This document shows positions 1-17,900 of a stretch of DNA of 59,715 bases, piece after piece (positions within the stretch are counted from its first letter, which is position 1; every line of letters begins with the position of its first letter). This DNA is from a virus. Taxonomy: Duplodnaviria; Caudoviricetes. The position numbers and the translations under genes were made by a program. The notes under the pieces were generated by a model, which saw nothing but the letters and a program-made list of their open reading frames with translations, was not told the DNA's origin and made no database searches. The stretch is from IMG/VR virus record IMGVR_UViG_3300033067_002245, positions 1 to 59,715 of that record; one strand, written 5' to 3'.

Positions 1-228
1 TGTGAACGTCGCGCCCTCTTGAACGTCAACGTAACCACTAACCTCAACTAACGCTGGTGCTGTGAACGTCGCGCCCTCTTGAACGTCAACGTAACCACTC
101 TTCGCTAACGCTGGTGCTGTGAACGTCGCGCCCTCTTGAACGTCAACGTAACCACTAACCTCAACTAACGCTGGTGCTGTGAACGTCGCGCCCTGCCGAA
201 CGTAAACGGAACCACTAACCTCAACTAA
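1..228. repeat. Coding tandem repeat, 57-60 nt units
   Basis: Units at 1-60, 61-117, 118-177 and a diverged partial unit at 178-228; unit lengths are multiples of 3. Confidence 0.95.
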
Positions 229-285
229 TTTTGAATAATCATGTTTGTCATCTTTTTCAATGACTAAGTTTCCTTGTATTTTCAT
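1..285 (-). CDS. Repeat (beta-solenoid-like) protein, 3' end truncated by window edge
   Basis: Not in ORF track. ATG at 285 reads MKIQGNLVIEKDDKHDYSKLVEVSGSVYVRQGATFTAPALVEVSGYVDVQEGATFTAPALAKSGYVDVQEGATFT..., open to base 1, starting 11 nt after the helicase stop. Confidence 0.8.
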   Translation of the reverse strand, partial: MKIQGNLVIEKDDKHDYSKLVEVSGSVYVRQGATFTAPALVEVSGYVDVQEGATFTAPALAKSGYVDVQEGATFTAPALVEVSGYVDVQEGATFT

Positions 286-296
286 GGGTTGATTTT

Positions 297-1925
297 TTAT
301 TTCAGATCTTTAAATGGAAATTTATTTTGTTGTTTAAGCCTTTCTGTATTTGCTTTTGCATCTCTTGCATGAATATCTTTTATGGCCTGTTGATATTCAT
401 TTTGTGTTACTCCTTTTGATACATCGTATCCAGCCGATGCTAATTGTTTTACTTTCCATGCAGGAACTAAAGAGTTGCCAATAATCTCAGCACACATAGC
501 TTTTGTGTAGTTAATATTTACTACATCATAATCCATTTGTTTAATCCAGTTTAATTGAGCCTCACTTGCAGGTTCCTGCATCCGGATAGAATCCGATATC
601 TTAACCTTTGGCAGCTTCAGTAAATCAACTTTAACATCTTTCTGCAATTGCTCAGCTTTAAAGGTCCGCTCATTCCTTGCTTGTATCAGCTTATCCTTTT
701 TCTCCTGAGTAACAAATACTCTGTCTTCGATTTCTTTTCCTTCATCAAGATTCCAAGTATTGATAAGCCTATGCTTTGATGTTACATCAATGAAATCCAA
801 AACCGTTACTTTTTGTCCGAACTTAGCAACATATTCTTCGTCTTTTAGTCTGGTGCCGCGACCGATTTGCTGTAAGAACTTAGTAAGTGATTTAGTAGGA
901 CAGCACATTAAAATTGCACCGGTGTTTGGGTGATCGAAACCGGCTGTTAAAATCATTACATTGCTGATACCGGTAATTTCTCTTTGTTTAAATCTTTGAA
1001 GTATTCCCCGTCTGTCAGTAGTTAATTCTTTATCTCCAACAACAAATTCAGTATCGACTCCTTTTGATTTAAAAACTTCTGTGAGATCCATTGCGTGTTG
1101 AACATCTACACAAAAAGCAATGAACTGTTTGCCGGGACAATATTGCAAATACTTCTCAACGATAAGATCATTACGCATTGGTGTGTTGATAACCTCTTCC
1201 AGTTGACCTTGATTAAGTTCTCCCCCTAATGTTTTAACTCCATCTAGTGAAGATTGTGTCTTAACTCTAATAGCATCTATTTCGCAAAGGAAACCATCTT
1301 TAATAGCTTTTTCAATAGGATATTCATAAACAATCTCGTCGAATATATCTCCCATTAACATCCCATCCATCCGATGTGGAGTAGCAGTAAGGCCAAGTCT
1401 TAACTTAGGAGTGAAGTGGTTTATAGATTTTAAAAACGTTTTGCTTCCAAATAGATGACATTCATCACACACAACAACATCGAAATAGTTAGATGGTATT
1501 TTATCAAGCCTATTCCATAACGTTTGCATAGAAGCAAAAACAATGGGTTTGTTGATAATAAATAGCTCTGCTTTTACTATGCCGACCGTATTAATAATTT
1601 CATCAAGCCACGGGTGAGAAAATAACCCTTGTGTTCTTGTTTTTAAGATACTTAACAAACCGCCTTGCTGACCAACAAAATCAGATAGCTCTTGTTTGTT
1701 GATGTTGGCTCTCTCGGCTACGTAATCAATCGCTGATTGCTCCAGCAAATCTTCTGTATGTGTGCCCCAGAGGACTCGACCTTTGTCCTTAATGATATCA
1801 ACAGATGTGGCTGTTTTACCGGTGCCGGTTGCCATTACTAATAGTTGATTCACTATACCTTTTTTTAACGCTTTCTCAACCGCTTCTTTCGCCTCTACCT
1901 GATAATACCTGAGTTGTCGTGCCAT
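297..1925 (-). CDS. Superfamily 2 DExH helicase
   Basis: Q-motif LRYYQ, Walker A ATGTGKT, DECH, motif III TAT, motif VI QQIGRGTR. Confidence 0.92.
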   Translation of the reverse strand: MARQLRYYQVEAKEAVEKALKKGIVNQLLVMATGTGKTATSVDIIKDKGRVLWGTHTEDLLEQSAIDYVAERANINKQELSDFVGQQGGLLSILKTRTQGLFSHPWLDEIINTVGIVKAELFIINKPIVFASMQTLWNRLDKIPSNYFDVVVCDECHLFGSKTFLKSINHFTPKLRLGLTATPHRMDGMLMGDIFDEIVYEYPIEKAIKDGFLCEIDAIRVKTQSSLDGVKTLGGELNQGQLEEVINTPMRNDLIVEKYLQYCPGKQFIAFCVDVQHAMDLTEVFKSKGVDTEFVVGDKELTTDRRGILQRFKQREITGISNVMILTAGFDHPNTGAILMCCPTKSLTKFLQQIGRGTRLKDEEYVAKFGQKVTVLDFIDVTSKHRLINTWNLDEGKEIEDRVFVTQEKKDKLIQARNERTFKAEQLQKDVKVDLLKLPKVKISDSIRMQEPASEAQLNWIKQMDYDVVNINYTKAMCAEIIGNSLVPAWKVKQLASAGYDVSKGVTQNEYQQAIKDIHARDAKANTERLKQQNKFPFKDLK

Positions 1926-2299
1926 TACTTAATAAGTGGTTGATGTAAATAATTATCTCGTTCTAATTGAGTGATCATGCCATTGTAAAAAGCCCTAAAA
2001 TCTCTGTCAGTATCATACAGGTTTTGAATTGCTCTTATAGCATGTAAAACGGTAGCGTGATCACGGTTAAACATATTCCCGATCTCTCCAAGCGTTAGCT
2101 TATAAAAGTTTAGTTTAAGAAGCCTCATTAACATTTGACGCGGGCGAACTATAGGAGTATAGCGTGTCTTAGATCCTAGCTCCTCCATTGTTACTTTATT
2201 AATCTTACAAAAGCTATCAGTAAGCCTGTAAGAGGTAAGTGTTGATTCATATATGCCTGGAGCTAACCATAGGCTAGGTGGTTGGTGATTCTTTATCAT
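1925..2299 (-). CDS. DnaA C-terminal-like HTH DNA-binding protein
   Basis: RPRQMLM...TLGEIGNMFNRDHATVLHAIRAI matches the DnaA domain IV signature (IG..F..RDHTTV.HA). Confidence 0.8.
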   Translation of the reverse strand: MIKNHQPPSLWLAPGIYESTLTSYRLTDSFCKINKVTMEELGSKTRYTPIVRPRQMLMRLLKLNFYKLTLGEIGNMFNRDHATVLHAIRAIQNLYDTDRDFRAFYNGMITQLERDNYLHQPLIK

Positions 2300-2513
2300 A
2301 TTTCTCCCTTTCTTCTAACATTGCATCAGCTATTTTGTAAGCTAATTTTGCTACATTGGCTGTTTCTTCCGCGCTTCGCCAGATAGAAATATCAAATCCG
2401 CTTAAAGCTTTTGCTGCGAAATAATCTCGTAGTGTCATGCCTGGATTATTTCCATAAGCCTTATAAGCAGACATAGGAAATGCTGGCGGATTATTTGGTT
2501 TCTTTTCTGACAT
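2274..2513 (-). CDS. Conserved phage hypothetical protein
   Basis: PAFP...GMTLRDYFAAKA...AYKIADAML, a recurrent small phage protein pattern. Confidence 0.75.
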   Translation of the reverse strand: MSEKKPNNPPAFPMSAYKAYGNNPGMTLRDYFAAKALSGFDISIWRSAEETANVAKLAYKIADAMLEEREKYDKESPTT

Positions 2514-2633
2514 GTTATTTTGTTTTGATTTTTACTTCTCTGATTTCCCTTACTTGCTTATTGATGTATATGAGCCAATCAATAAATGAAATATTTTCCG
2601 GCCTCTTAATTGTTTTTGTTATGCTTAGGACTT

Positions 2634-2822
2634 TCATTTTGCTTTTGTGTTAGCATTGTTAGTTTTAGCAGGAACAATCCAAATATTCCGGTTGAATGTT
2701 CCCTTGGAAATTAGTTCCTTTCTCTTGGTCACTGCAATGGCGTATGGCACATTCAGAGGCAACGTATGTTTTATACGTTTGCCTTCCCATACTTCTACAT
2801 TGTACAATTTAACTGCTTGCAT
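2634..2822 (-). CDS. Hypothetical protein
   Basis: ORF in tightly packed minus-strand run. Confidence 0.55.
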   Translation of the reverse strand: MQAVKLYNVEVWEGKRIKHTLPLNVPYAIAVTKRKELISKGTFNRNIWIVPAKTNNANTKAK

Positions 2823-2834
2823 GATTCTTGCTTA

Positions 2835-3092
2835 TTAGTTATCAAATCCCCAAAACTCATTCATCCTCTTTATCACATCGGGATTCGTTTGTCGGTTATA
2901 TCGCTCTGCAACCTTTTCCCATCCGTGACTATGATTAGGGGACCACGCACAATCACAAGCACTTCTATATGAAGCTTCACCATTACGTATTTCTGTACCT
3001 ACCGATACACCACAAAAAAAACAATCATGTGATGGCCAATATATAATTCCTTTTAATTCTGCTTGTTGTTTGAATTCTTCTGCTGTTCTCAT
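2835..3092 (-). CDS. Hypothetical protein, possible Zn-binding
   Basis: CFFC and CDC motifs; packed operon. Confidence 0.65.
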   Translation of the reverse strand: MRTAEEFKQQAELKGIIYWPSHDCFFCGVSVGTEIRNGEASYRSACDCAWSPNHSHGWEKVAERYNRQTNPDVIKRMNEFWGFDN

Positions 3093-3093
3093 T

Positions 3094-3294
3094 TTAATGA
3101 TGTATTAATTTATCTTCTGTTCTGAATTGTTTCTCATTTTCCATGTCATACTGATACTGCTGTAGCTCATCTATATCCATATCGTAAAACATATCAAATA
3201 AGTCATTGTAGTAATACTTTGAAGTAGGAGGGATGCCAATATCCCTCTTAATCTTAAAAATGTTTCTTATGTATTTTAAACGAGTTTTCAGCAT
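3094..3294 (-). CDS. Hypothetical protein
   Basis: Packed minus-strand ORF. Confidence 0.55.
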   Translation of the reverse strand: MLKTRLKYIRNIFKIKRDIGIPPTSKYYYNDLFDMFYDMDIDELQQYQYDMENEKQFRTEDKLIHH

Positions 3295-3311
3295 GATAAT
3301 AAGTTTAGTGG

Positions 3312-3575
3312 TTACACATCATATTCATCATCGTATTGTAAAGCATCGGAAGGTTTTTGGTCAAACCAAATAGGGGTCAAAGACCCGTTTATTATTTTTT
3401 CCGTGGTTCTGTGGGCTTTATTACCTTGCTGTATAGCTAAATAAGCCTGTTGTTGCCATATATGCTTTTGTTCAAACATCTCCGGCCAAGTATCCTTTGC
3501 CAGCTCTTCGAATTCTGGTATCAAATCGCATAGCTTAATTATAAGCTGCTGCTCACTTGTTGTTAGTGGTTTCAT
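3312..3575 (-). CDS. Hypothetical protein
   Basis: Packed minus-strand ORF. Confidence 0.6.
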   Translation of the reverse strand: MKPLTTSEQQLIIKLCDLIPEFEELAKDTWPEMFEQKHIWQQQAYLAIQQGNKAHRTTEKIINGSLTPIWFDQKPSDALQYDDEYDV

Positions 3576-3642
3576 AAAATTGGATTTTGATTTTTAATAT
3601 GAAAAGTCCCCGCTTATGGAGGAGAGCCGTTATCCCCATTGC

Positions 3643-4047
3643 TCATACGGTAGCCACACTTGGGCAGTGCATCGAAGCTATCTTCTGTATCTTTTTAGTT
3701 GAGGGAGCCGGATTCGAACCGACCAACAGATGCCTCCGTTGCCTAGCCAAAGAGTCCCCCATCCATCTATCTCTAAACAGATTCTTTAAAATAAGCGCCC
3801 AAATTGCTACGAGGTACTCAGTCCCAGGTTTGAGCCTTAATGGTAAGGTAAATCCAATCGTCCCCCAAGTCTTTCTGCTATAATCACATACTCCAGAACA
3901 TACTCCATAATATCTTTGTGATATCCCCATTAATTTAAATTGACCGTTAACTTCTTTATGATTTTCATTTATCCAATCAATCACTTTCCACTAGTTAGGA
4001 TCTCGTGTATCTTTTGCAATACACCATTCTTTTGGTAAATTTTTCAT
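3643..4047 (-). pseudogene. Probable pseudogene with in-frame amber
   Basis: ATG 4047 MKNLPKEWCIAKDTRDPN, TAG at 3993-3991, then same frame continues into ORF 3643..3984. Confidence 0.45.
3699..3761 (-). ncRNA. Truncated tRNA-like RNA (63 nt)
   Basis: 7-bp acceptor TGGGGGA/TCCCTCA, T-arm GTCGG-TTCGAAT-CCGGC, hairpin CAACGGA-GGCA-TCTGTTG; no proper D-arm or anticodon loop. Confidence 0.55.
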
Positions 4048-4180
4048 CTTTTAAAAATTAGTTGATTTTTTTAATAGTAACCGGGAGCAAACTCTAACCC
4101 CTAGAGGCTCCCGATATTTTGGCAGTGTGCATAGCCACTACCATATTTTCCATAATAAAGGCCTTCACCCGCATTCTTCC

Positions 4181-4426
4181 TTAGTTAGGTTCCGTTACCT
4201 CCTGGATAGTAATAATGTCCTTTAGATAAGCGTATTTATCACTACCATGATTATATAGCTGAATAGTATTGCAATTCTTATAAAAGGCTGTTGCGCTATC
4301 GCTTTGACCATTTTTATAATAGACAATGAATTTACAGGGTGGGGGAGTGGGTTCTTTCTGTTTAAAATAATTAAAGATAAACACCCCTGAAATGCTGCCA
4401 ATAAGGAATATAATATATTTTTTCAT
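4181..4426 (-). CDS. Small membrane-anchored hypothetical protein
   Basis: N-terminal hydrophobic segment. Confidence 0.6.
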   Translation of the reverse strand: MKKYIIFLIGSISGVFIFNYFKQKEPTPPPCKFIVYYKNGQSDSATAFYKNCNTIQLYNHGSDKYAYLKDIITIQEVTEPN

Positions 4427-4649
4427 GTGATTTTTTTTAGTTATTAATTAGCCCCTCGATTGCATCGAAAGCAGTTACACATACCAAATTGTTAGTTTTC
4501 GGACGCTATCCGAGCTATTCAAAATGCCCGTATGTTAAACTCGAGGGATTTACCAAGTCCAATCAATTCGAGATGAAGCTACTTGGTAATAAGAACCTAG
4601 TAAGGACTTACGCGTTTTTATTCGCTGCCTTCGCTTACTAGGGTGTAGG

Positions 4650-4852
4650 TTTGATAAGGGCAGGATTCGATACCTGCATCGGTTTGCATTTAGTTTTGAT
4701 GGATTTGGGCCAATCGCTTTAAAGCACGCCAAATAACTTTACCGAAAAGAGTACATTTGATTTTATAACCCATTTTAGAGTAACTTAATCGGGAGGTTTT
4801 GCACCTGATTTTTGCACACCCGATGCGTTGAGATTCCGCAACCCTTATCAAA
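4650..4852 (-). ncRNA. tRNA-shaped RNA with ~135-nt insertion
   Basis: 11-bp terminal stem TTTGATAAGGG/CCCTTATCAAA, D-like arm GTTG-CGGAATCT-CAAC, inner stem ATCGG/CCGAT, T-like arm GCAGG-TATCGAAT-CCTGC. Confidence 0.55.
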
Positions 4853-5143
4853 GTATTATAAATTAACCCAGAGGTTAACGTGTCTATTTTTTGCGATTTT
4901 TTATACATGTTTTTTAAACGTGTACACCAAATCGACATTTTCTATGTATATTCTCCCAACATGATAACAACCTTCCTAAAAACCGAGCGAAGCTTCAAAG
5001 TCTTTATTATTCGTTGTGTGTTGGTACAGGGTGCAGTCATCTCCCCGCCGTTTCCAGACCTTTATTGTTCAGCCTATCTCTGCATTGCAAACGTTGCTTA
5101 TAGCAACTATGTCAAATAACGTCCTTCAACTTCACTAATCTTG

Positions 5144-5168
5144 TGGAGGTTCCTGGAATCGAACCAGG
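5144..5168 (-). ncRNA. tRNA/tmRNA-like 3' fragment
   Basis: CCTGG-TTCGATT-CCAGG-AACCTCCA; no convincing 5' partner found. Confidence 0.35.
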
Positions 5169-5274
5169 CAAAACCGACCTTCTTAATCTTCGCCTATGCA
5201 CAGACTATAAGGACTACCGGCCACTACCATTTACTAACCACCGTTTGCCGATCTTTTTATTTGATTTTTTTAAT

Positions 5275-5436
5275 TTAAAGCACTTCCCAAAGAATATTTA
5301 CGCCATCATGCTCTATAATAATTTGCCCTATATCGTAGTTAACCAATTTGCGAGCTACCTCCAAGGTGAACCAGCTATCTTTGCCTGACCCTGCATTTAA
5401 AATAGTTCCATTGCTATTTAGTATTCTATACTTCAT
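5275..5436 (-). CDS. Small hypothetical protein (53 aa)
   Basis: Below ORF-track cutoff: MKYRILNSNGTILNAGSGKDSWFTLEVARKLVNYDIGQIIIEHDGVNILWEVL, A-rich leader. Confidence 0.6.
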   Translation of the reverse strand: MKYRILNSNGTILNAGSGKDSWFTLEVARKLVNYDIGQIIIEHDGVNILWEVL

Positions 5437-5467
5437 TTTATTGAGTGTTAAAATGTTAGTTTAATAA

Positions 5468-5530
5468 ACCAGCGCATCGGAAAATTGCTCAGATTAAACC
5501 TTTGCGCTGGTATTCGGAGGCAACCGAATG
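5468..5530. ncRNA. Intergenic double hairpin, candidate sRNA
   Basis: ACCAGCGCA/TGCGCTGGT stem plus ATTCGG-AGGCAA-CCGAAT hairpin containing GGAGGCAAC. Confidence 0.5.
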
Positions 5531-5569
5531 TTATTTAATTTTGTTTGAAAGCTTCTTTTATTAAATCGT

Positions 5570-5752
5570 CTAAAACTGGATCTGCTCTTCGGAATAAGCT
5601 TCAACAATAGTACATTCAATTCTCAATTTAATACCTTTAGATTTACATTGCTTTTTAATCTCATCAAAACAATTAGGATTCGAAGTATAACAATTGTATC
5701 TTATCCCATTAATTGTCCTGTACTGTAGTATAGATTGTTTTGGTTTTCTCAT
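5570..5752 (-). CDS. Hypothetical protein
   Basis: Early-region ORF. Confidence 0.5.
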   Translation of the reverse strand: MRKPKQSILQYRTINGIRYNCYTSNPNCFDEIKKQCKSKGIKLRIECTIVEAYSEEQIQF

Positions 5753-5792
5753 TTTATTTAAGACAATTAAAGCAAATTCAACTTTTGATATT

Positions 5793-6071
5793 TTATTGAG
5801 GTATTTTATTGCATTTTAATCGTTTCAATTTATTTCTGCCTATATCAGTTAATATATAGACCTCTTTAAAGTATCCATTATCAATTGGATGCTCCTTTTT
5901 TATCTTTTTAATATTGTAATTGTGCCCCTTTGCGAGGGTGTCAAATGTGCCAAAAACGAATAGTTTTAATTTTTCATCTTTGGCTTTATGTTTACATCTA
6001 ACGCTAGTGTATAAATAACCTGCCGCGGTCCTATTCGGGCGAGGTGGTAAACTGTTTATATTATATGCCAT
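5793..6071 (-). CDS. Hypothetical protein
   Basis: ATG at 6071 overlaps the upstream gene end. Confidence 0.55.
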   Translation of the reverse strand: MAYNINSLPPRPNRTAAGYLYTSVRCKHKAKDEKLKLFVFGTFDTLAKGHNYNIKKIKKEHPIDNGYFKEVYILTDIGRNKLKRLKCNKIPQ

Positions 6072-6357
6072 AATTAACAACTTCTTTTTTAAGGCATTTT
6101 ATTTGTATATTGCTACGTAATACAATGCCCTGTTTATATAGATCAAATGTGTGATCTGTGTTTATTAAACCTTTGTTTTTTAATAATTCTAGGGCTTTAT
6201 CTTTATAAGACTCACCATAACCATATTGAAAGGGTAATTTAAATTGTTTTTGGTTTTTAAGTCCAAAATTAAGTGTGATAATGGCTGAGAAATAAGAATT
6301 AGCATTTATTTTATCAAACCATTCCTTTGCTTGAATAGTAATTGTTTTAACTTTCAT
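6061..6357 (-). CDS. Hypothetical protein, paralog of 8596..8910
   Basis: Shared AxEWFDxINxNxYFS and PFQYG motifs. Confidence 0.8.
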   Translation of the reverse strand: MKVKTITIQAKEWFDKINANSYFSAIITLNFGLKNQKQFKLPFQYGYGESYKDKALELLKNKGLINTDHTFDLYKQGIVLRSNIQIKCLKKEVVNYGI

Positions 6358-6430
6358 AGTGTGATTGTTTTAAAGTTTTATAATGTAAATGATTCTGATT
6401 CAACGTATGGCACAAATAGATGTTTCATGG

Positions 6431-6913
6431 TTAGTTGGTTCTATAGATGTAGTAATTTGTTCCGTTAATGCTCTGCGTTTGTTCTGAGCCATCATAAGTA
6501 GCAAGTGAATGCGCACGGCCATCAATCTGGCAATCTCTTTTAAAAGCTTCATTATCAAAATAGTTTCTGTATTCCTTTGGGCTTTTACATAACACACAAT
6601 CATCAATATATTGTTCCAGGTAATTGTCCCATATTTCTTCCGCCTCTTCATCTGTAACAATTAGACGTTGCCTATTTCCTATTTCAAAATAATTGTCGTT
6701 TTCTGTGATTGAATCAAGGTCGTTGGGTGTTAATCCATCCTCTAAGCATAGAGCTAAAACCTTTTCAGGAGAAGAAAATAACTTATCTGATATGTATTGA
6801 ATAGCTTCATCTTCTGTAAATTCAATTTTTATGTCTTCATAATCAGAATTGATTAATTCTTCAAATGGCATATTTAATAGCTTTTTTGATAATTTGATTT
6901 GTGTCGTTTTCAT
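6431..6913 (-). CDS. Acidic hypothetical early protein
   Basis: AAGGAGGCAAC leader; ends DGRAHSLATYDGSEQ...YYIYRTN. Confidence 0.8.
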   Translation of the reverse strand: MKTTQIKLSKKLLNMPFEELINSDYEDIKIEFTEDEAIQYISDKLFSSPEKVLALCLEDGLTPNDLDSITENDNYFEIGNRQRLIVTDEEAEEIWDNYLEQYIDDCVLCKSPKEYRNYFDNEAFKRDCQIDGRAHSLATYDGSEQTQSINGTNYYIYRTN

Positions 6914-6994
6914 TTGTTGCCTCCTTATGATTTAGTTATTACTCAATTATCTGTATTATAGCTGCAATAAGAATAGTGCGATTCGTTGAGTGGG

Positions 6995-7525
6995 TTATTT
7001 GTTTACTTCATATGTTAGTACTTCATTTTGTATTGATCGGTATTGTATTGCCTCTGCAATATGCTCTAATTTAACTTCTTTGGCTTTATCTACTTTTGCT
7101 ATTGTTGTGGCTACGTCTAAAATGATTTGTATCTCATATGGGCACAAACCTAATCGGTCATATGCAACTTTGATTAAATTGTCAATTGAGTCATTAACGC
7201 CAATAACAGCAGGCGTAATTACAGGCGTGTTTTCTTTAAATGCCTTAATACGTTCATTTACCTGATCTATTGTCTCACCTTTGTAGCTACTTACTAGGGT
7301 ATTAAAATTAGGGCGTACAACTTCAATATAAATATCTACAGGCTTGTTTGGGTCAAAATAGCTATTAAAATAATTGCGTAATAAATTTAATTGTGATTTA
7401 TCAACCCCTCCATCTTCAATTTTATTTGTAAGTAATAACATGTTATGGTTTCCGCATTTAGCTATTTCATAAGCTCGCATTGCATTTTCATTTCCTGCGT
7501 ACAGGTTTAATTTAGTTGTTTTCAT
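6995..7525 (-). CDS. Truncated ComM/YifB (Mg-chelatase-like) homolog lacking ATPase core
   Basis: RAYEIAKCGNHNMLL resembles ComM RALEIAAAGGHNLL; ILDVATTIA...EHIAEAIQYR resembles the ComM C-terminus; no Walker A/B. Confidence 0.7.
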   Translation of the reverse strand: MKTTKLNLYAGNENAMRAYEIAKCGNHNMLLLTNKIEDGGVDKSQLNLLRNYFNSYFDPNKPVDIYIEVVRPNFNTLVSSYKGETIDQVNERIKAFKENTPVITPAVIGVNDSIDNLIKVAYDRLGLCPYEIQIILDVATTIAKVDKAKEVKLEHIAEAIQYRSIQNEVLTYEVNK

Positions 7526-7547
7526 TTGTTGCCTCCTTATAATTTAG

Positions 7548-8087
7548 TTATTGAATTTCAGTTAATTGTGCAATCTCTTCATCAGAAAATAACATACATA
7601 CGTTGTTATATTCATCTTTTACAGCATTATAAACCCTTTCTGCTTTTTTACTGTCTGAATCGTACCCGCATTCATTACAAAAGTCATCAAGTGTTCCGGG
7701 ATCATGTTTAGTCAAACATGCTAATATATCATAGGCAGTTGGGGCGGAATAATTAGGATTTTTTAGTATATCTTTTTTAATACCAGTTATCCACAGTAAT
7801 TTTTTATACTGCTCCTCATTAAGGCAAATTCTGCCGCCTGTAGTTCGTTCACACCACGATTTATTTTGCAAATGTTCTGCAACCTGATATTCACCGCTTC
7901 TTTTTAAAGATTGGCCAAAATCAAAGCTAAATTTACGATTACCACGTTTTAAAGTAATTTTATAAATATCCCGATCATGCGTATCGTCTTCAAAGTGTTT
8001 ACCATGTTTTAAAAATTCAAAAATAAATTCTGTATTGGTTTTATTTAAAAATTCAATAGCTTGTTGTTCGTAGTTTGTTGTTTCCAT
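7548..8087 (-). CDS. Hypothetical early protein
   Basis: Start reassigned to ATG 8087 (METTNYEQQA) directly after the shared leader; PTAYDILACLTKHDPG motif. Confidence 0.8.
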   Translation of the reverse strand: METTNYEQQAIEFLNKTNTEFIFEFLKHGKHFEDDTHDRDIYKITLKRGNRKFSFDFGQSLKRSGEYQVAEHLQNKSWCERTTGGRICLNEEQYKKLLWITGIKKDILKNPNYSAPTAYDILACLTKHDPGTLDDFCNECGYDSDSKKAERVYNAVKDEYNNVCMLFSDEEIAQLTEIQ

Positions 8088-8274
8088 TTGTTGCCTCCTT
8101 ATGATTAGTTTAGTGAATAATAAATTTTGCACATTGCCGTGCGTAATACTGTGCTTTTATATGCTATCTGTTCATATGGTGATAGTGTCTTATAATCCAT
8201 CTTCATTAAGAATTCACCGATAGCATTGTTTTGAATCTCACATAAAAACTCAAAGCCGTTTATTTGAACCTTTT

Positions 8275-8577
8275 TCATGATAGCTTAGATATTTCAGCGT
8301 TTTTGAATTCAGCCTGAACTTTTAATAAAATTTCTTGGCTCTCCTTTGGAGCAAATATTTTATCTTTCATTCCATACAAAGCAGTCAACACTTTTGAGTC
8401 ATTTTTTGCTTCGTTTACATCTTTATACTCAACACCTAATTTGTAATAGGTATATCCGTATTTTTCACCGTCTAAATATTGATCTTCCGTTACTACTAGA
8501 AACGGATTACCCCAAGATTCAACGTGTATCACTCCTATTCTGTGGGTGTATGCCCATCCTTTTAATGTTTCTTTCAT
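8275..8577 (-). CDS. Hypothetical early protein
   Basis: Shared leader. Confidence 0.75.
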   Translation of the reverse strand: MKETLKGWAYTHRIGVIHVESWGNPFLVVTEDQYLDGEKYGYTYYKLGVEYKDVNEAKNDSKVLTALYGMKDKIFAPKESQEILLKVQAEFKNAEISKLS

Positions 8578-8595
8578 AATGTTGCCTCCTTATTA

Positions 8596-8910
8596 TTAAT
8601 TGGTTGATAATGGATTAAATTTTACTTCTTTCTTTTTACATCCTTTTTGAATATTGGCACGAATTATTATTTTTTCCTTATTCTCCAATTCAAATATTCT
8701 TTCAGTAGGTATAAATTTCAACTCAAATAGAATTCTAATAGCTTTATATTTATATTGATCGTTGTTACCATACTGAAAAGGTATTACCCAAATTTTTTCT
8801 TTTTTCGTTCCGATGTCGGTCGTTACACTGCCGGAGAAATAGCGGTTACCATTAATTCTATCAAACCATTCACGAGCGTGTATATCTATTGTTTTAATTT
8901 TTGTTTTCAT
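8596..8910 (-). CDS. Hypothetical protein, paralog of 6061..6357
   Basis: Shared leader and motifs. Confidence 0.8.
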   Translation of the reverse strand: MKTKIKTIDIHAREWFDRINGNRYFSGSVTTDIGTKKEKIWVIPFQYGNNDQYKYKAIRILFELKFIPTERIFELENKEKIIIRANIQKGCKKKEVKFNPLSTN

Positions 8911-8937
8911 TTGTTGCCTCCTTTGTTTTAGTTGTTT

Positions 8938-9141
8938 TTATTTTAAAAATATTTTAGGTATTATAAAACTATTTGCTTGTTTTTTTGTTATTTCTCCATC
9001 TTTATATAAAGAACCAATATAGTTGTTGTATGCTTCAGCTCTAAGTGGTTTATCTGTAAAGCCGCCATGCTCTAATACTTTAATTAACGGGAGTATCTCC
9101 GTTTTAAAAAACTCATCGACTTGTTTTTTTGTTTTTTTCAT
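8938..9141 (-). CDS. Hypothetical early protein
   Basis: Shared leader. Confidence 0.75.
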   Translation of the reverse strand: MKKTKKQVDEFFKTEILPLIKVLEHGGFTDKPLRAEAYNNYIGSLYKDGEITKKQANSFIIPKIFLK

Positions 9142-9241
9142 AGTGTTGCCTCCTTTGTTTTAATTGTTATTTAACTTAGTAATATAGCCAGTATCAGACA
9201 AGCGATACACATTTCAATTGTGTAGTCCCGTTTCATGATAA

Positions 9242-9391
9242 TTAGCTCAGTGATATAAATGCGATTAGTAGAGCGGTAGCCATTACAATAAATACTACCT
9301 TGTTTGTGTCGAAATCAATTTGATCCTTAAAAGATCTTTTTTTCTTCGTTAAGCTAATAGCTTGTTGAAGTTGTAGAACAGTTTGTTTCAT
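9242..9391 (-). CDS. Small membrane peptide (49 aa)
   Basis: MKQTVLQ...VVFIVMATALLIAFISLS, C-terminal hydrophobic helix. Confidence 0.4.
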   Translation of the reverse strand: MKQTVLQLQQAISLTKKKRSFKDQIDFDTNKVVFIVMATALLIAFISLS

Positions 9392-9663
9392 CGGTCGATT
9401 TTTTTTAAGTTTTTGTTGACTTTGTTGTAATTATGATTTACTTTTACAGCTCGTTCTTTAAAAAGACTTTTTAAAAATCTCCCACTATCTAATTTAGATA
9501 ATATTAATTGAAATATTGGGAGGGAATCTTTAAAAAGAACTTGTTGTTATTTCTTTTACAATGATAGGGCAAAAAATAATCGTTCCGACATGATTTTTTA
9601 AAGCCTTGTAAAATTAATAGTTAACTGCTTGATAATGAGTAAATAAATTTTCATATCAGCAGC

Positions 9664-9686
9664 TAATTTAGAATCATTCTAAGGAA
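9664..9686. promoter_or_regulatory. Degenerate copy of Fur/PerR-like palindrome
   Basis: TAATTTAGAATCATTCTAAGGAA upstream of the early gene cluster. Confidence 0.55.
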
Positions 9687-10602
9687 AAAAAAGGCACTTT
9701 GTTACAAAAAAATAACGAATTACAGAGAGTTGGAAGTCGTTATTTGAAAATAACAAGTGAGTCATAACAACGGTTTCGCCGGTATCTCAATAATGCCGCG
9801 GGAAACAAGCCAAACAACAGCTTAATTTAATGTTGTTACAATATATTAGAGGTGATAAGATCACTAAATAAGACGGGATTTGTGGTAGGGGTTTGAATAG
9901 GATTCACCTGGTAGCACACAAACATTTGGTACGCGCATGATCTCTTTTGTATATTGAATAAAGGCTTTACCGCCTGCCTATAAAACCAGTGCAACTACGA
10001 TAGTAGTGTATGTATGGGATTACATCACACATGCGATTAAATCGCATCTCTTTAAATGTAGCAGGGTCTTTTCGGATTTGTTGCCCACTACAGCCATGAT
10101 AGCCCGATATACCAGCTGACGAATTACAGCCATTAAATCATTCTTTGGTAGAGATCACTCATTCTTCTTATCCCTTATGTAAATTATCGTTCTTTTCATT
10201 TGATTATACTTCTTACACATAAGGGGGTAAGGGGGATTTGTGACCTCTACCAATCCAACCCTCCAAAACCGCTTCGGAATTGTCAGACCTTCCCGAAGTA
10301 AAGAAGATCAATAAAATTAACCTCAATAACCTTATCCCCACCGAAATATCCATTATCCCCAGAAATCACAATCATCTGATTATATTATCACATATACATA
10401 GATAACAACCATTATCTATACATATTCATAAAATATACATAGATAACCCCTAAAAATAGGGTGGAACACCCTAAACTCACGCCCGGCCAAAACTTTTTTT
10501 TACATATTTGCTCAAGATACAAATATTTGACGTATATTTGTATCCACTTCAACGCCAATCCTTGGCCAAAGAGTTTTTAAAGAACAGAGCAAAAGATCAG
10601 GT

Positions 10603-10932
10603 TTATCCCTGGTCTTTTTGCTTTCTATACCTTATCTCATCCTCCTCAACCTTTCGCATTATCTCTGATAAATGAAATTGATTGTTCTTGTCCCTCTTTA
10701 AATTAGGAATATTCCTTTGTAATGAATAAAATAATTCCAACGCCGTTATATTAAATAATCCAGCTAATTTTACAATATCGCCCATTCTCATTAAATAAGG
10801 ATTATCAATATATTCCCTCATTGTTTTCGGAACACAATTTAAAGCCCTGCAAAGATCAATCATTGATAATTGGTTGTTTTTACTATGCGTTGCTATTGGA
10901 TGCCTCTGATCCATTATGTCAAGTTTCTTCAT
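10603..10932 (-). CDS. XRE/Cro-like HTH regulator
   Basis: LSMIDLCRALNCVPKTMREY...DIVKLAGLFNIT pattern. Confidence 0.6.
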   Translation of the reverse strand: MKKLDIMDQRHPIATHSKNNQLSMIDLCRALNCVPKTMREYIDNPYLMRMGDIVKLAGLFNITALELFYSLQRNIPNLKRDKNNQFHLSEIMRKVEEDEIRYRKQKDQG

Positions 10933-11493
10933 TATATTAAATTAAAGTAATATAAAATTAAACCATATTGGCCATATATACAAGAAATTCCAAGGGGAGC
11001 TGCTTATTTGGTTATTATTGGCCATTATTATACGATAAATGACATTTTATAGGCTGTTTTAGTGTTAAATATGTAATTTGCCATAGTGTCAGCGGACCTT
11101 TTCCCTTAGATAGACACAACAACCTCATTGTGTACATGATTTTAAGCCTCTGAAACACTTGCTATCGTTGAAATTAGTTGTTTTCCATCTTTCTATCCCA
11201 AAATTAGTTAATTCAAAATAAGTCAAAAAAAACTGTTTTCGAGGCCACCCGGTCCGCAAAAATCACTTTCCTTTTTCGAGCCTAGCCCCCCCGATCTATG
11301 GGGTAGCCTCTCTAAAAAATATACGCAATATTTTTTTTTAAATAAGTCTGTATAGGCTGTTTATGTTGTGGTATAGGTAATTATCTGGTAATTCCGGATA
11401 GTTGGGGTTATGGGGATCTGATTTTCTGTAAATTATTTTCTAACAATTGTTTGTTAATATGTAAGATATTGACTTATTTTCGGGAAAAATCAA

Positions 11494-11937
11494 ATGGATA
11501 TGATGAAATTAGATAGAATACAGGTACAGGCGTTAATAGAGTATCATAGGAAGGAGATACGGGATATAGAGGAGAAGATAAGGGCATTGGAGGGGTATAT
11601 GGGAGGTGTGAGTGTTGAGGAGGTGGCTGAGGTGCGGGTAAGTGTGAGGCCGGTAGAGGAGATGTTTAATCCGAGGCGGATGGTAATGGATATGTTGGAG
11701 AGGGAGTGGAGGTTTTTGAAGACGGTTGATTTTGTGAGGGAGGCTGAGGAGGGGTGGAAGCAGAGGAATACGGTGGAATTTAGGAGGCAGATGTCTAATA
11801 TGTTGGCGGGATTGAAGGTGGCTGGGAAGTTGGTAAATTATGAGGGGATAGATAGGCTGGAGAGGTATTGGGGGTTACCGGGTTGGTTTGATGCAGAAGA
11901 TAAACCTTTAGAAAAATATAAAATAATCGATTTTTAG
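11494..11937 (+). CDS. Hypothetical protein, extremely G-rich/C-poor gene
   Basis: 147-aa ORF with N-terminal coiled coil, followed by a terminator. Confidence 0.65.
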   Translation: MDMMKLDRIQVQALIEYHRKEIRDIEEKIRALEGYMGGVSVEEVAEVRVSVRPVEEMFNPRRMVMDMLEREWRFLKTVDFVREAEEGWKQRNTVEFRRQMSNMLAGLKVAGKLVNYEGIDRLERYWGLPGWFDAEDKPLEKYKIIDF

Positions 11938-11944
11938 AAATAAA

Positions 11945-11987
11945 AAAAACACATCTGTGTTGATTGGCGTCGAGCAGATGTGTTTTT
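11945..11987. terminator. Bidirectional intrinsic terminator
   Basis: AAAAACACATCTG...CAGATGTGTTTTT. Confidence 0.7.
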
Positions 11988-11998
11988 AACTTTATTAC

Positions 11999-12067
11999 GG
12001 GGAATCCGCTGGTGCGGTGAGTGGCCCTTGACAGTTCGCTCAAAGAGTTCGAGTCTCTTATTCTCCA
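11999..12067 (+). ncRNA. Non-canonical tRNA-like RNA with G3:U70
   Basis: Acceptor GGGGAAT/ATTCTCC, mini D-arm CCGC-TGGT-GCGG, long central arm with CTTGACA loop, T-arm AAGAG-TTCGAGT-CTCTT. Confidence 0.55.
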
Positions 12068-12071
12068 CAAA

Positions 12072-12135
12072 TACTTACCACAAAGGTAAGTAAATTTTTA
12101 ATATATACAAAATTTACCTACCTTTGTGGTAAGTA
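12072..12135. promoter_or_regulatory. 64-bp palindrome containing two outward-facing TACCTTTG elements
   Basis: 27-nt arms (26/27 match), 10-nt spacer; TACCTTTG on + at 12119-12126 and on - at 12088-12081. Confidence 0.75.
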
Positions 12136-12141
12136 ATAAAA

Positions 12142-12217
12142 TGGTACTCCTGATAGGAATCGAACCTATATCGCGCATTTCGACAAAAAGCTGCTTTATC
12201 CGTTAAGCTACAGGAGC
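12142..12217 (-). tRNA. tRNA, anticodon GTC (Asp) on an Arg-like body, CCA encoded
   Basis: 76-nt cloverleaf: GCTCCTG acceptor, GCTT-AACGGATA-AAGC D-arm, loop TTGTCGA with a U-U stem mismatch, ATAGG-TTCGATT-CCTAT, ACCA end. Confidence 0.75.
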
Positions 12218-12225
12218 GGTACTTC

Positions 12226-12269
12226 AAAACACATTTGATCCGGTGTCCAAACTAAATCAAATGTGTTTT
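12226..12269. terminator. Bidirectional intrinsic terminator
   Basis: AAAACACATTTGAT...ATCAAATGTGTTTT, similar to the 11945-11987 hairpin. Confidence 0.7.
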
Positions 12270-12291
12270 TTATTTCACTTTAAATTCTTCC

Positions 12292-12314
12292 TTACGTAGA
12301 ATGAATCTAAATAA
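12292..12314. promoter_or_regulatory. Degenerate copy of Fur/PerR-like palindrome
   Basis: Minus strand TTATTTAGATTCATTCTACGTAA. Confidence 0.45.
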
Positions 12315-12342
12315 AAACCCTTTAAAATCAATATTTACATAG

Positions 12343-12801
12343 CTAATAATATCTAATGTTCTGAGGGGATAAGTACCGAATATTAAGTTGTTTCATAAGT
12401 TTTTTTAGTTCGGAGATGTTTCGTATTGTTCCTTGAAAGAAAGTGTCTAAGGATTCATGGATACATCCGTTGTCTATTATAATCTCTTTTGAATCAGTAA
12501 AAAAATATAAAAACAAATCTGTTTTTTTTATTGTGAAATTTATTGAATTAGGGCTAGTTGATTGTTTGGTCCATCCGCAGCTTTCGATGTCTTCTCGGTC
12601 GAGGTATTTGACTCTGTAATTGTTTATTATATACTCAGGATCTTCGTCTTCGATAATATCACCAAGGAGATATTTATCAATTATTTCTTCTCCCCAAACT
12701 AATCTTTCTCCTTTATGAGTGGGATGATCATTGAAATATAGTTTTTCACACTTAAATCCAACATGAAACTCCTCAATTGCGGGGGTATAGTATTCTTTCA
12801 T
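12343..12801 (-). CDS. Hypothetical phage protein
   Basis: YYTPAIEEFHVGF...RVKYLDREDIESCGW...F.GTIRNISELKKLM. Confidence 0.75.
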   Translation of the reverse strand: MKEYYTPAIEEFHVGFKCEKLYFNDHPTHKGERLVWGEEIIDKYLLGDIIEDEDPEYIINNYRVKYLDREDIESCGWTKQSTSPNSINFTIKKTDLFLYFFTDSKEIIIDNGCIHESLDTFFQGTIRNISELKKLMKQLNIRYLSPQNIRYY

Positions 12802-13490
12802 TATGCTGCTTTGTATATAGGATTATTAATAATTTTTTTGATGGTAGAGGCGTAGAATTGTCCGCCTTCTTTTGCTTTGAATTGGTTATCGTTAAGGTAT
12901 TTTGCTATTTTGTTGGGAGCCCATCCATCATTAGATAGGGCGAATATTTTGTCAATAATTTCTTGTTCGGAGGGGTTTGGTACCATTTGTCCGTCTACTA
13001 TGTTAAATCCTAATATTCTTCTGGTATATGCTTTAAGGTTATCTTTTTTATGGTTCAGGACGGCTTTAATACGTTCTCCGGTGTTATCTCTTTCAAATTG
13101 GGCAATGGATATCAGTTGAGTAAATATAAGCTTTCCTATGGCTGTTTTGGTGGTAAATGATGCTCCTCCCATGTCGATGATGTGTAGATCGACGTTTTGT
13201 TCATTCCAGGCGGCAACGGTTATGAGGCCGTCAACGGTGTTACGGAAGAGGCGGTCAGGTTTGATGGCTATGATTGTTTTGGCTTCAGTATTTGCCAGTA
13301 GGTGATTAGCTTTTTTCCCACCGGGGCGTTTATCGAATTCGGTGAATCCGGAAACATCTTCATCGATGATTATTTCAGTGAGGATGATATTTTGGAATTT
13401 GCAATAGCTGTTGATGCGTTCGGTTTGAACGGCTATGGAGTTGGATTGGTCGTCTGTGGAGACGCGGATGTATCCGATTGCTTGTATCAT
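12801..13490 (-). CDS. Serine recombinase (resolvase catalytic domain plus short recombinase DNA-binding domain)
   Basis: YIRVST catalytic Ser, RPG, DRLFR, AQFER, C-terminal IAKYLN...F..STIKKIINNPIY. Confidence 0.9.
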   Translation of the reverse strand: MIQAIGYIRVSTDDQSNSIAVQTERINSYCKFQNIILTEIIIDEDVSGFTEFDKRPGGKKANHLLANTEAKTIIAIKPDRLFRNTVDGLITVAAWNEQNVDLHIIDMGGASFTTKTAIGKLIFTQLISIAQFERDNTGERIKAVLNHKKDNLKAYTRRILGFNIVDGQMVPNPSEQEIIDKIFALSNDGWAPNKIAKYLNDNQFKAKEGGQFYASTIKKIINNPIYKAA

Positions 13491-13807
13491 TTCTTACTGA
13501 TTTTAATTTCGTTAAACGGTGTTTTGATAACAGGAGCCAGGTAAAGAACGCCACCGGTTTTTACCAGGAGTTTCATCTTGTATAGCTTATGCAGGGTCGC
13601 TCTGTACACTTCATGGCTAATTCCTAGTTTTTTGGTGACGTATTTGGATAAAGGCTCTACGTTGGTAATTTGGGCATTTTCTGAGAGGGATATGATCTCT
13701 GAAAGAACTCTTGCCATAGTAGAGGGCTTTGATTTAATCCCAATAGCTATTATAGCCATCAGGATATTAATGTTCTTGGTTTCTATTGTTTTTGATAATG
13801 ACTTCAT
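13487..13807 (-). CDS. Winged-HTH DNA-binding protein
   Basis: KKLGISHEVYRATLHKLYKMKLLVK..GVLYLAP. Confidence 0.55.
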   Translation of the reverse strand: MKSLSKTIETKNINILMAIIAIGIKSKPSTMARVLSEIISLSENAQITNVEPLSKYVTKKLGISHEVYRATLHKLYKMKLLVKTGGVLYLAPVIKTPFNEIKISKK

Positions 13808-13820
13808 AAATGTTATTTAA

Positions 13821-13856
13821 TTATAACGACAAATGTATAACAAATATTCGTTATAA
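13821..13856 (-). promoter_or_regulatory. TACATTTG promoter bracketed by inverted repeat TTATAACGA/TCGTTATAA
   Basis: -7 element at 13837-13830 upstream of wHTH and recombinase genes. Confidence 0.55.
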
Positions 13857-13867
13857 AAAAATAACGC

Positions 13868-14599
13868 TTATAAATTATTTGCTAATTTATATTTAAGCAT
13901 AGCTTCCACTTCGTACTTCATGTATGGGACAGGGATGGCGTAATGGCCTAATAAGTTGTCGGGCGGGAAGAAACGGATGTGTAGGTTGCCTATGGGCCTT
14001 CCTGATAGCTGTTGGTACATATAGGCATATATGCTAAGCTGCAGGGAATAATGATTGTAATTGCAGTTCTGTAAATGCGATAGGGGACCGGTCATATATT
14101 TACCGTATGGGCATTTAAACTGGATACCTTTTGATTTGTTTGTTTTGTAGTCACTAAGGTCCACTACGGATGTCCGGTGAGATGTTGTCTCGGAAAGGCG
14201 ATCTGTGGTACCGGCAATCATGAAGGTTTCACTCCAAAGAACTTTCTCCAGGTGGTTTTTGTGATAGTGGGAGTATTCCTTGGCTACGGATACGATCATA
14301 GGGCGTAAGTGCTCATCTTCGGGTAGAATGATGGTTGACTTCTCGTAGCGCTCTAATGCGTTGTGTATTTTGTTCCCGTGACGTATGCTATCGTCTTTGG
14401 TCTCTTCCCATTCGTCAAGCACTTCTTGTTGGGATATGCCGCGTTTACGAGCGGTAGCCATGGAGATATTTTCCCGATCGAATGGCGGCTTAAACATCTC
14501 CAGGAATCTACTCACCGATAAGTACTCACGACCTTTTTTGTCGAAGTACTTATGGGATATAGGCTCTAATTCAACAAAGTCTAATAGTTCCTGTTTCAT
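13868..14599 (-). CDS. PD-(D/E)XK exonuclease
   Basis: SVS...GNKIHNALE...E...AGTTD...DYKT...YSLQLSIYAY. Confidence 0.8.
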   Translation of the reverse strand: MKQELLDFVELEPISHKYFDKKGREYLSVSRFLEMFKPPFDRENISMATARKRGISQQEVLDEWEETKDDSIRHGNKIHNALERYEKSTIILPEDEHLRPMIVSVAKEYSHYHKNHLEKVLWSETFMIAGTTDRLSETTSHRTSVVDLSDYKTNKSKGIQFKCPYGKYMTGPLSHLQNCNYNHYSLQLSIYAYMYQQLSGRPIGNLHIRFFPPDNLLGHYAIPVPYMKYEVEAMLKYKLANNL

Positions 14600-15499: not shown

Positions 15500-15765
15500 A
15501 TTCTTTTGTCTTTGTTAGTATCGATTAATTTTCCTAGTTTAATTATGTATGATCGTTTTAAAATTATTTCTCTGATTGCGATATCCATGTAATCTTCGCT
15601 ATTGTCTTTTTTGATTCGGATGAATTCGTTGTTTCTGTGTACGCGTTGTGTTGCTCCGGAATTATACTTAATCCTAACTTCGAGTATTTTGCCATTTAAA
15701 ATCTGATTAAACCTCTTTCTGTCTACAGTTAGTAGTAAGTACACTACCTTCTCAATTCCGTACAT
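15496..15765 (-). CDS. Hypothetical protein, possibly ASCH-like
   Basis: F..I.NGK..EVR pattern. Confidence 0.45.
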   Translation of the reverse strand: MYGIEKVVYLLLTVDRKRFNQILNGKILEVRIKYNSGATQRVHRNNEFIRIKKDNSEDYMDIAIREIILKRSYIIKLGKLIDTNKDKRI

Positions 15766-17213: not shown

Positions 17214-17611
17214 AAAAATTAATGAATTTATTTACCAGGCTGGTAGAGGCGTTGGAGAAACAAAATACTATTGCTCAGCAAATAAGACACTCTGTTGAGT
17301 TAAATAGAGAGGGCCAGATTACTTTGGGTCAGATTCGATATTTGCTTGATCAGCATGCTTATGCTTTAGCTGTTTCTGTTGGTCAAGCAGAGTATACAGC
17401 TTTTCAAAAAAGAATAGAGTTCTTACAAGAAAAAAAACGATTAGGGCATAAATTAACAAATGCTGAAATTGGGGATATTGAAACGTTTTCAAGCATTTTA
17501 CAGAGAAAATATGCTAATGCTGATCGTCAAAAAGAAGATAAAAAAAAGGAAAGTGGAGAACAAGAAGCATTAAGAAAAGCTTTTAATAAAGAAAGGGGTG
17601 ATGCATGTTAA
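17210..17611 (+). CDS. Hypothetical protein
   Basis: Overlaps both neighbours. Confidence 0.65.
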   Translation: MKKLMNLFTRLVEALEKQNTIAQQIRHSVELNREGQITLGQIRYLLDQHAYALAVSVGQAEYTAFQKRIEFLQEKKRLGHKLTNAEIGDIETFSSILQRKYANADRQKEDKKKESGEQEALRKAFNKERGDAC

Positions 17612-17889: not shown

Positions 17890-17900
17890 TCAAATTTAAT

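Follow-up and report, generated by a model that had tools for sequence, protein, structure and literature searches.

Masking of a ribosome-binding site (RBS) by a hairpin-loop RNA is a known mechanism, and in the case of the phage c4 RNA the masking RNA is cut from the same transcript as its target and lies upstream of it. The loops of c4 from phages P1 and P7 pair around the RBS of a phage mRNA and block its translation, as recounted in PMC12197685, citing Citron and Schuster 1990. For RNAIII and CyaR, PMC2837412 describes loops, in RNAIII the C-rich loops of H7, H13 and H14, that pair with the Shine-Dalgarno (SD) sequence of several mRNAs; the duplex spreads and blocks initiation. Here we investigated a candidate for such an RNA in the virus record IMGVR_UViG_3300033067_002245 (Duplodnaviria; Caudoviricetes) from IMG/VR, which comprises 59,715 base pairs (bp) with a GC content of 37% and is rated 89% complete; this whole stretch is called the window in the following. 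The element in question is a small intergenic hairpin, hairpin 1, whose minus strand holds the complement of a leader shared by six upstream genes. A first-pass annotation had proposed it as a phage small RNA (sRNA) that shuts off early genes by occluding their RBS, possibly together with a sponge RNA.

A leader shared by six genes and its complement in a hairpin

The motif GGAGGCAAC occurs seven times in the window, where 0.23 copies are expected, and none of 100 shuffles reached this number. Six copies are located on the minus strand in front of consecutive genes and end 2 nucleotides (nt; four genes) or 3 nt (two genes) before the ATG (9141, 8910, 8577, 8087, 7525 and 6913); the core common to all six leaders is AAGGAGGCAAC. 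The seventh copy lies on the plus strand at 5516–5524, inside hairpin 1. Read on the minus strand from 5529 to 5512, this hairpin is ATTCGGTTGCCTCCGAAT and exposes GTTGCCTCC, the complement of GGAGGCAAC. Sequence and motif counts thus confirm the perfect 9-nt complement of the six-gene leader that the first-pass annotation had reported for the minus-strand hairpin. Its placement of the seed in the loop also held up: six of the nine complementary bases fall in the predicted loop, and in the predicted fold the pairs of the stem have probabilities of 0.84–1.0.

We determined the predicted pairing between the hairpin region and the leaders. All six leaders can form 12–13 bp with it at −20.0 to −20.8 kcal/mol, compared with −15.6 kcal/mol for the 9-mer alone. 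The duplex consists of 9 bp, followed by a 1x2 or 3x3 internal loop and a further 3–4 bp over the AUG, and its formation requires hairpin 1 to be unfolded. When unfolding of both partners is taken into account by co-folding, the six leaders show a net gain of −12.5 to −15.6 kcal/mol; 55 other start regions range from −0.7 to −13.3 kcal/mol, three of them reaching −11 kcal/mol or lower and the other 52 lying between −0.7 and −10 kcal/mol. A 3,761-nt RNA spanning 9200 to 5440 has a minimum-energy fold in which the hairpin is opened up and base-paired to the leader and AUG of the gene starting at 8087. On the plus strand the flanks of the hairpin are unlike those of the leaders, the similarity being confined to the 9-mer and the ATG core.

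As the best explanation of these sequence features we tentatively propose a co-transcribed anti-leader RNA that would mask the leader and AUG of the six genes. Such an RNA would explain why the core is exact, why the complementarity extends to the AUG and is displayed in a loop, why the similarity is restricted to the core and why an otherwise SD-less phage has a shared tag. Hairpin 1 would be a pared-down antisense version of the unit formed by leader and AUG in six consecutive early genes, for which an inverted duplication of one leader is probably the simplest route. It would be transcribed on the minus strand, most likely in the same long early transcript, 0.9–3.6 kilobases (kb) downstream of the leaders, and the hairpin RNA may persist as a 3' fragment ending at the neighbouring hairpin 2 and its U-rich tail. 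The loop would nucleate pairing with the GGAGGCAAC box and the helix would extend along the 5' side of the stem as far as the AUG. The resulting 12–13-bp duplex, from −14 to +3 of the start sites, would prevent initiation and might attract an RNase specific for double strands. Because the hairpin would be made after the six genes, the arrangement would provide a built-in, delayed shut-off of the whole set including an ArdA-like anti-restriction gene. Transcription and processing of the hairpin, as well as its in vivo pairing and repressive effect, are steps that we infer.

Among the products of the tagged genes, the protein of 160 amino acids (aa) matches the ArdA antirestriction family with 28.7 bits (cut-off 27), the 176-aa protein contains a segment resembling the C-terminal part of Mg-chelatase, and those of 179, 104 and 67 aa are assigned to PHROG families whose function is not known. 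The set looks like an early takeover or anti-defence block. For the 179-aa protein, whose family comprises 286 database proteins at E≤0.001, an AlphaFold model (predicted local distance difference test score, pLDDT, 91) had no PDB match at E≤0.001; its N-terminus, a helix and three strands, gave only weak matches resembling a double-stranded RNA-binding domain (E 0.06–0.4). The name "Hfq", attached to one homologue by a single database source, was rejected since it has no Pfam support. Small genes at 6061–6357 (98 aa) and 8596–8910 (104 aa) on the minus strand are paralogues of the phrog_6246 type, only one of which has an SD-like leader.

An SD-like upstream region is present in 17 of 80 loci with a homologue of the 179-aa gene, and in two of 20 among the closest matches listed; the leader itself is missing from these loci. 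Since such regions are rare, the leader tag was added in the lineage of this phage, and that six adjacent genes received it points to a common reader. Within the record only the hairpin has a sequence matching the tag. A protein might alternatively be the reader, with the hairpin serving as RNA decoy or operator for a repressor or nuclease in the style of RegA and RegB, or as a DNA palindrome (ATTCGG, 6 nt, CCGAAT) bound by a dimeric regulator, for which the neighbouring 53-aa protein may be a candidate. A tag common to six genes fits a protein operator, the hairpins and the 53-aa gene are inherited together, and according to PMC3014915 T4 RegB cuts GGAG in early start regions while RegA binds about 30 start regions. 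However, a six-frame search of the 89%-complete record returned no match at E≤1 for either RegB (PF10715) or RegA (PF01818), and what the hairpin presents on the transcribed strand is complementary to the leader and not identical with it. For the palindrome there is no second copy (at up to three mismatches 20 matches, 19.5 expected), and the model of the 53-aa protein (pLDDT 83) has no match to a DNA-binding fold, the best E being 2.6. We therefore regard a protein-binding site as very improbable.

SD-type leaders and the host type of the phage

The window is divided into a minus-strand part, from 1 to about 15,500, and a plus-strand part, from about 16,000 to 55,900. A search with the large terminase led to 87 phage records at 36–38% identity, 86 of which infect Flavobacteriia (hosts: Flavobacterium 68, Cellulophaga 15, Tenacibaculum 2, Maribacter 1). 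By this sequence measure the phage is a distant relative of Flavobacteriia podoviruses. In one of the 87, Elemovirus NC_055852, 78 of the 79 listed start regions are without an SD-like box, the exception being the gene start at 11853. The same phage also has GroEL and GroES; in the window GroES-like (274 aa) and GroEL-like (531 aa) genes are located at 16389–19496 on the plus strand.

The six leaders pair in the manner of SD sequences: AAGGAGG ends 6–7 nt before the ATG, at −10.8 to −10.9 kcal/mol with a 9-nt anti-SD probe. Among 61 starts of open reading frames (ORFs) in the window eight pair with this probe at −10 kcal/mol or better, and six of these eight are the leaders. Upstream regions of the remaining genes are A/T-rich; A is enriched at −3, where it accounts for 62%, and at −10 to −13, where its share is 55–64%. 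Bacteroidia mRNAs are described as lacking SD sequences and as using A at −3, and TAnnTTTG as the −7 element of Bacteroidetes promoters (PMC6847099). This box precedes five late genes of the window (starts 19578, 22730, 25223, 29135 and 45447). Bacteroidia ribosomes are reported to be "blind" to the SD because bS21, bS18 and bS6 hold the tail of the 16S rRNA, and in F. johnsoniae a strong SD has been reported on rpsU only, which is better translated by ribosomes without bS21 (PMC9976891, PMC13000453, PMC7797042). The host type of the phage is very probably SD-blind and Bacteroidia-like.

In such a host type the six leaders would be no ordinary ribosome-binding sites, and the idea of RBS occlusion has to be reconsidered. 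The earlier proposal of an sRNA that shuts off early genes through their RBS therefore stands in part: the complementarity is exact, sited in the loop and longer than first noted, whereas the leaders are not ordinary binding sites in a host type that is probably SD-blind. One possibility is that the SD-like tag routes the six genes to ribosomes with an exposed anti-SD, for example those without bS21, and that the hairpin, as a co-transcribed mimic of the anti-SD which in addition masks the AUG, closes this route and thereby acts as an RNA timer; we judge this to be decidedly unlikely. No bS21 gene was found in the record (89% complete).

The five late promoters share a further feature. A 23-bp palindrome, TTATTTAGAATCATTCTAAATAA with small variants, is followed by 5 nt and the TAnnTTTG box, 24–37 nt upstream of the ATGs; the portal gene is among the genes concerned. 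Since the palindrome occupies the place of the −33 element, it is probably the site of a late regulator of the phage.

Chance, transcription and relatives of the hairpin region

We estimated how often the individual properties of hairpin 1 would arise by chance. About 0.11 inverted copies of the 9-mer (half of 0.23) are expected in the window, random flanks around the 9-mer gave a perfect 6-bp hairpin with the loop inside the motif in 538 of 60,000 trials (0.9%), and for a start-codon complement at a fitting distance we put the chance, as a rough estimate, at a few per cent. The product of these terms is small, yet the feature was picked post hoc among very many windows and arithmetic alone cannot exclude chance.

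A rival explanation arises from the position of the hairpin. It shares a 133-nt gap between the minus-strand ORFs of 60 aa and 53 aa with a second stem-loop, hairpin 2, and the two may be structural hairpins at the boundary of a transcription unit: hairpin 2 and its U-rich tail, helped by hairpin 1, would terminate or stabilise the upstream transcript, and the match to the leaders would be coincidental. Hairpin 2, a possible terminator or 3' stabiliser, is strong (Table 1) and directly followed by TTTATT (5468–5463) on the minus strand, and the intergenic gap folds better than shuffled sequences (z = −3.07; equalled by two of 200 shuffles). The minus-strand RNA of 1–15500 contains 14 copies of CCTCC, which is in keeping with an incidental match. 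On the other hand, a U-tract is missing from hairpin 1 on the minus strand, the loop of hairpin 2 (24–26 nt) is atypical for an intrinsic terminator, and a terminator scan flags hairpin 1 on the plus strand only, where no gene is read. A boundary role also requires the inverted 9-mer, the hairpin-forming flanks and the start-codon complement at the right spacing to coincide by chance. We consider it somewhat unlikely.

The position of promoters is relevant to how the hairpin might be transcribed. No Bacteroidota-type promoter box is present in the non-coding minus-strand DNA from 10400 to 5400, where four matches lie inside ORFs; non-coding boxes on this strand are found only at 13837, 12088 and 11206. 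The six genes and the hairpin may be on one transcript, as judged from the sequence. Since the hairpin is located downstream on the strand of its targets with no recognisable promoter between, co-transcription, the RNA then acting in cis or once processed, is as likely as a separate sRNA gene.

Related contigs were compared with the window; uncovered stretches and contig ends of low depth were not counted as evidence. Over the hairpin region a contig from one DNA run (X5) covers 5296–5532 without differences, and one from another (X11) covers 5257–5537 with five differences and continues into unlike sequence beyond both ends. These unlike flanks indicate that the two hairpins and the 53-aa gene move as one module. 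Farther upstream, related contigs diverge or end at the leaders (7538, 8577, 8580 and 8910). One X11 contig joins 6992 to 8910, so that the 176-aa gene is followed by one base and then the ATG of the 104-aa gene, the intervening genes and that leader being absent; in another related contig 8911–9177 is replaced by 41 other letters. Related phages are mosaic, with joints at gene starts.

These joints bear on a further rival, in which the seventh leader is simply inverted, either as the remnant of a plus-strand gene since lost or of recombination with leaders acting as "linkers", or as a live plus-strand start of a 6-codon ORF (5528–5548). On the plus strand GGAGGCAAC is followed by 3 nt and ATG, the spacing of two of the six leaders, the hairpin is followed by a T-rich tail and flagged as terminator-like, and the breaks at the leaders, together with one at 5537 beside the hairpin, fit recombination joints. 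However, nothing leader-like extends beyond the 9-mer and ATG, while a neutral relic should decay evenly. The ORF has six codons only in a region (1–15500) that is entirely minus-strand coding, no Bacteroidota-type promoter box was seen upstream on the plus strand when the sequence was read by eye, and the perfect stem still needs chance (0.9%). An inverted leader is thus quite improbable. The remaining probability we leave to explanations that we have not thought of.

Several observations weigh against the anti-leader RNA. Perfect 6-bp hairpins with at least three GC pairs are as frequent in the window (30) as in ten shuffles (16–36), and a coincidence of about 1 in 1,000 or rarer per window will arise somewhere among many screened windows. 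Specificity by energy is modest: of the 17 best duplex sites six are the leaders and nine lie inside late genes. One anti-leader for six leaders is also a poor stoichiometry unless the fragment accumulates. A contig of 281 nt from an RNA library (metatranscriptome) matches 5507–5787 without differences at a depth of 2.8, its strand and ends not being given; it could be DNA carry-over or read-through and is no proof of transcription or of a discrete RNA. The sole relatives with the hairpin, the X5 and X11 contigs, are near-identical, too similar for covariation to show. Eleven IMG/VR loci carry a homologue of the 53-aa gene at 31–70% identity and are poor in SD sequences (GGAG or GAGG upstream of 0–3 of 7–24 plus-strand ORFs), and none has the leader upstream of genes or the hairpin pair. 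In three of them (L114, L115 and L117) the homologue is preceded by plain, canonical terminator hairpins, so the position of the hairpins may be a mere boundary between transcription units, inherited with the 53-aa gene. Finally, 16 other loci in which SD-type leaders are repeated yielded a single, partial inverted copy, in L002.

In one locus with a homologue of the 53-aa gene, L060 (69% identity), the contig begins 4 nt before the gene. Leader and anti-leader co-occur only in this phage and its near-identical kin, which is compatible with a young paired system but is no test of one. The exact 18-mer of the hairpin has no match in IMG/VR, and neither has a pattern of both stems with a free loop. 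Searches with the 160-aa gene, and with the 53-aa gene as a single-sequence query, returned no relatives; the helicase led to one locus (L015, 54% identity) without the leader, and a DNA search of the phage collection gave no match. A 38-nt leader query gave chance-level matches only (E 0.1 or higher), one in a Bacteroides phage being inside a coding sequence. Seven IMG/VR loci (L001–L007) which share the 21-nt leader plus start were rejected as coincidence: their genes are unrelated and they have their own, different repeated leader. In five of these unrelated loci (L001, L003, L004, L006 and L007) extended leaders of the CTGAGGAGGTC type occur 4–11 times per locus, and in L002 GAGGAGGCA occurs five times. 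Identical extended leaders are a recurring habit of phages, in these loci without an inverted copy save the partial one in L002.

Surrounding elements and comparison with known systems

The coordinates of the features are listed in Table 1. The 53-aa protein encoded downstream of the hairpins is conserved, with 37 clusters at 57–98% identity.

Table 1. Position of the leaders, the hairpins and further features in the window
Feature	Coordinates	Strand	Description
Hairpin 1	5512–5529	minus	Perfect 6-bp stem, 6-nt loop, −5.8 to −6.6 kcal/mol
Anti-leader (candidate)	5516–5530	minus	5516–5524 complements GGAGGCAAC; 5527–5530 complements (A)AUG of the six starts
Hairpin 2	5469–5510	minus	GC-rich 8–9-bp stem, 24–26-nt loop, −16.1 kcal/mol
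Leader copy 1	9145–9153	minus	Gene 8938–9141, 67 aa, phrog_336
Leader copy 2	8913–8921	minus	Gene 8596–8910, 104 aa, phrog_6246
Leader copy 3	8581–8589	minus	Gene 8275–8577, 100 aa
Leader copy 4	8090–8098	minus	Gene 7548–8087, 179 aa, phrog_4273
Leader copy 5	7528–7536	minus	Gene 6995–7525, 176 aa
Leader copy 6	6916–6924	minus	Gene 6431–6913, 160 aa, ArdA-like antirestriction
60-aa ORF	5570–5752	minus	Directly upstream of the hairpins
53-aa conserved gene	5275–5436	minus	Directly downstream; travels with both hairpins as a module in a related contig
tRNA-like element	3698–3776	minus	T-arm, 7-bp acceptor stem with G3.U70; AGGCAACGGAGGCA at 3732–3745
tRNA-like elements of the region	5243–5143; 4849–4650; 3867 or 3776 to 3698 (G3.U70)	minus	
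A-rich repeat	5262–5273; 4428–4439; 4063–4074; 3586–3606	minus	TTAAAAAAATCA
Late promoters	19505–19548; 22669–22712; 25154–25197; 29075–29118; 45387–45430	plus	Palindrome and Bacteroidota-type box

The first-pass annotation had assigned the sense motif of the leader to a tRNA-like element farther downstream and regarded this element as a possible sponge. On the minus strand the element indeed contains AGGCAACGGAGGCA, which amounts to two overlapping 7-mers of the leader and not to the 9-mer; the nearest match to the 9-mer is GGAGGCATC with one mismatch. In simple duplex scans its energy of −20.5 kcal/mol is equalled by nine sites inside late genes. With two 7-mers only, the case for a sponge is weak as judged from the sequence. 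ARAGORN with default parameters does not recognise the element (3698–3776) as a tRNA, nor does Rfam, where selenocysteine tRNA (tRNA-Sec) scored 15.5 bits against 47; a call was obtained only at a threshold of 85%, with mismatches.

It belongs to a 1.5-kb minus-strand region (3690–5245) with few good ORFs and at least three tRNA-like elements, each having a T-arm, a 7-bp acceptor stem and a degenerate or oversized middle. The element at 4849–4650 contains a 163-nt insert (4842–4680), which is missing from related contigs in three runs. None of the elements of the region was called by ARAGORN at default settings or by Rfam; matches to transfer-messenger RNA (tmRNA) and tRNA-Sec remained below threshold. 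In all four runs contig depth in this region is the highest of the examined stretch, many joints skip parts of it, and loose contig ends at 5143–5149 resemble other T-arms. A search of the region against 401 Bacteroidota genomes gave nothing beyond one 31-nt match (E 7.5e-4), and the T-arm had no match in IMG/VR. The A-rich repeat TTAAAAAAATCA and its variants precede several small ORFs and one tRNA-like element by 10–25 nt; at up to one mismatch there are eight matches where 3.3 are expected. In another part of the minus-strand half, at 12343–13490, a 229-aa ORF contains a resolvase domain and the beginning of a recombinase domain and is directly abutted at 12801 by a 152-aa ORF; the two may be a split or frameshifted large serine recombinase.

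RNA-based regulation and the timing of phage genes are little explored in Bacteroidota, and in the titles and abstract openings of the papers listed in literature searches neither an anti-leader RNA nor a set of SD-type leaders is described for Bacteroidota phages. If the pairing is functional, a phage-encoded anti-leader RNA would govern an entire block of early genes by means of a single common tag. Independently of any role of the hairpin, SD-type leaders of identical sequence on six genes are unexpected in a Flavobacteriia-type phage that otherwise does without SD sequences. Ribosomes of this type are currently held to ignore the SD except on the bS21 mRNA, and the leaders lend themselves as a natural test of the conditions under which the hidden anti-SD comes into use during infection. 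Should the leaders route their genes to particular ribosomes and the hairpin close this route, the locus would be a self-contained RNA timer that exploits differences among ribosomes, the first of its kind in a phage.

The arrangement resembles S. aureus RNAIII and E. coli CyaR in that a hairpin loop of the anti-SD type is directed against several start regions, which is predicted here from the sequence. RNAIII and CyaR are, however, host sRNAs with their own promoters in SD-using bacteria, whereas the hairpin is phage-encoded and located downstream of its putative targets on the same strand. It further differs from both in a host type that ignores the SD, in targets which carry an identical 11-nt tag and in having no membership in CyaR by sequence: the hairpin is not assigned to any Rfam family, CyaR_RyeE (RF00112) scoring 14.3 bits against a cut-off of 47 (E 3.3). 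With c4 it shares the principle of a phage RNA whose loops are directed against the start region of a phage mRNA. c4 acts on one operon (antirepressor, immunity) of temperate enterobacterial phages, while here six targets would be addressed by an RNA downstream of them, and the two have no sequence relation.

Two further systems are similar in their logic. In T4, RegB and RegA switch off an early gene set via a motif in the start region, GGAG being the RegB site (PMC3014915); the T4 effectors are proteins, homologues of which were not found in the record, whereas the candidate effector here is an RNA. In Flavobacteriales the strong SD of rpsU singles out an mRNA for special treatment against an SD-less background, and in F. 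johnsoniae this concerns one host gene with pairing near −20 kcal/mol (PMC9976891, PMC13000453). The tag examined here concerns six phage genes and combines an SD of 7–8 bp (−10.8 to −10.9 kcal/mol) with a CAAC extension which does not follow the anti-SD. Taken together, the comparison makes it plausible that the hairpin works like the known anti-SD loop RNAs but differs from them in its origin, position, host and target set.

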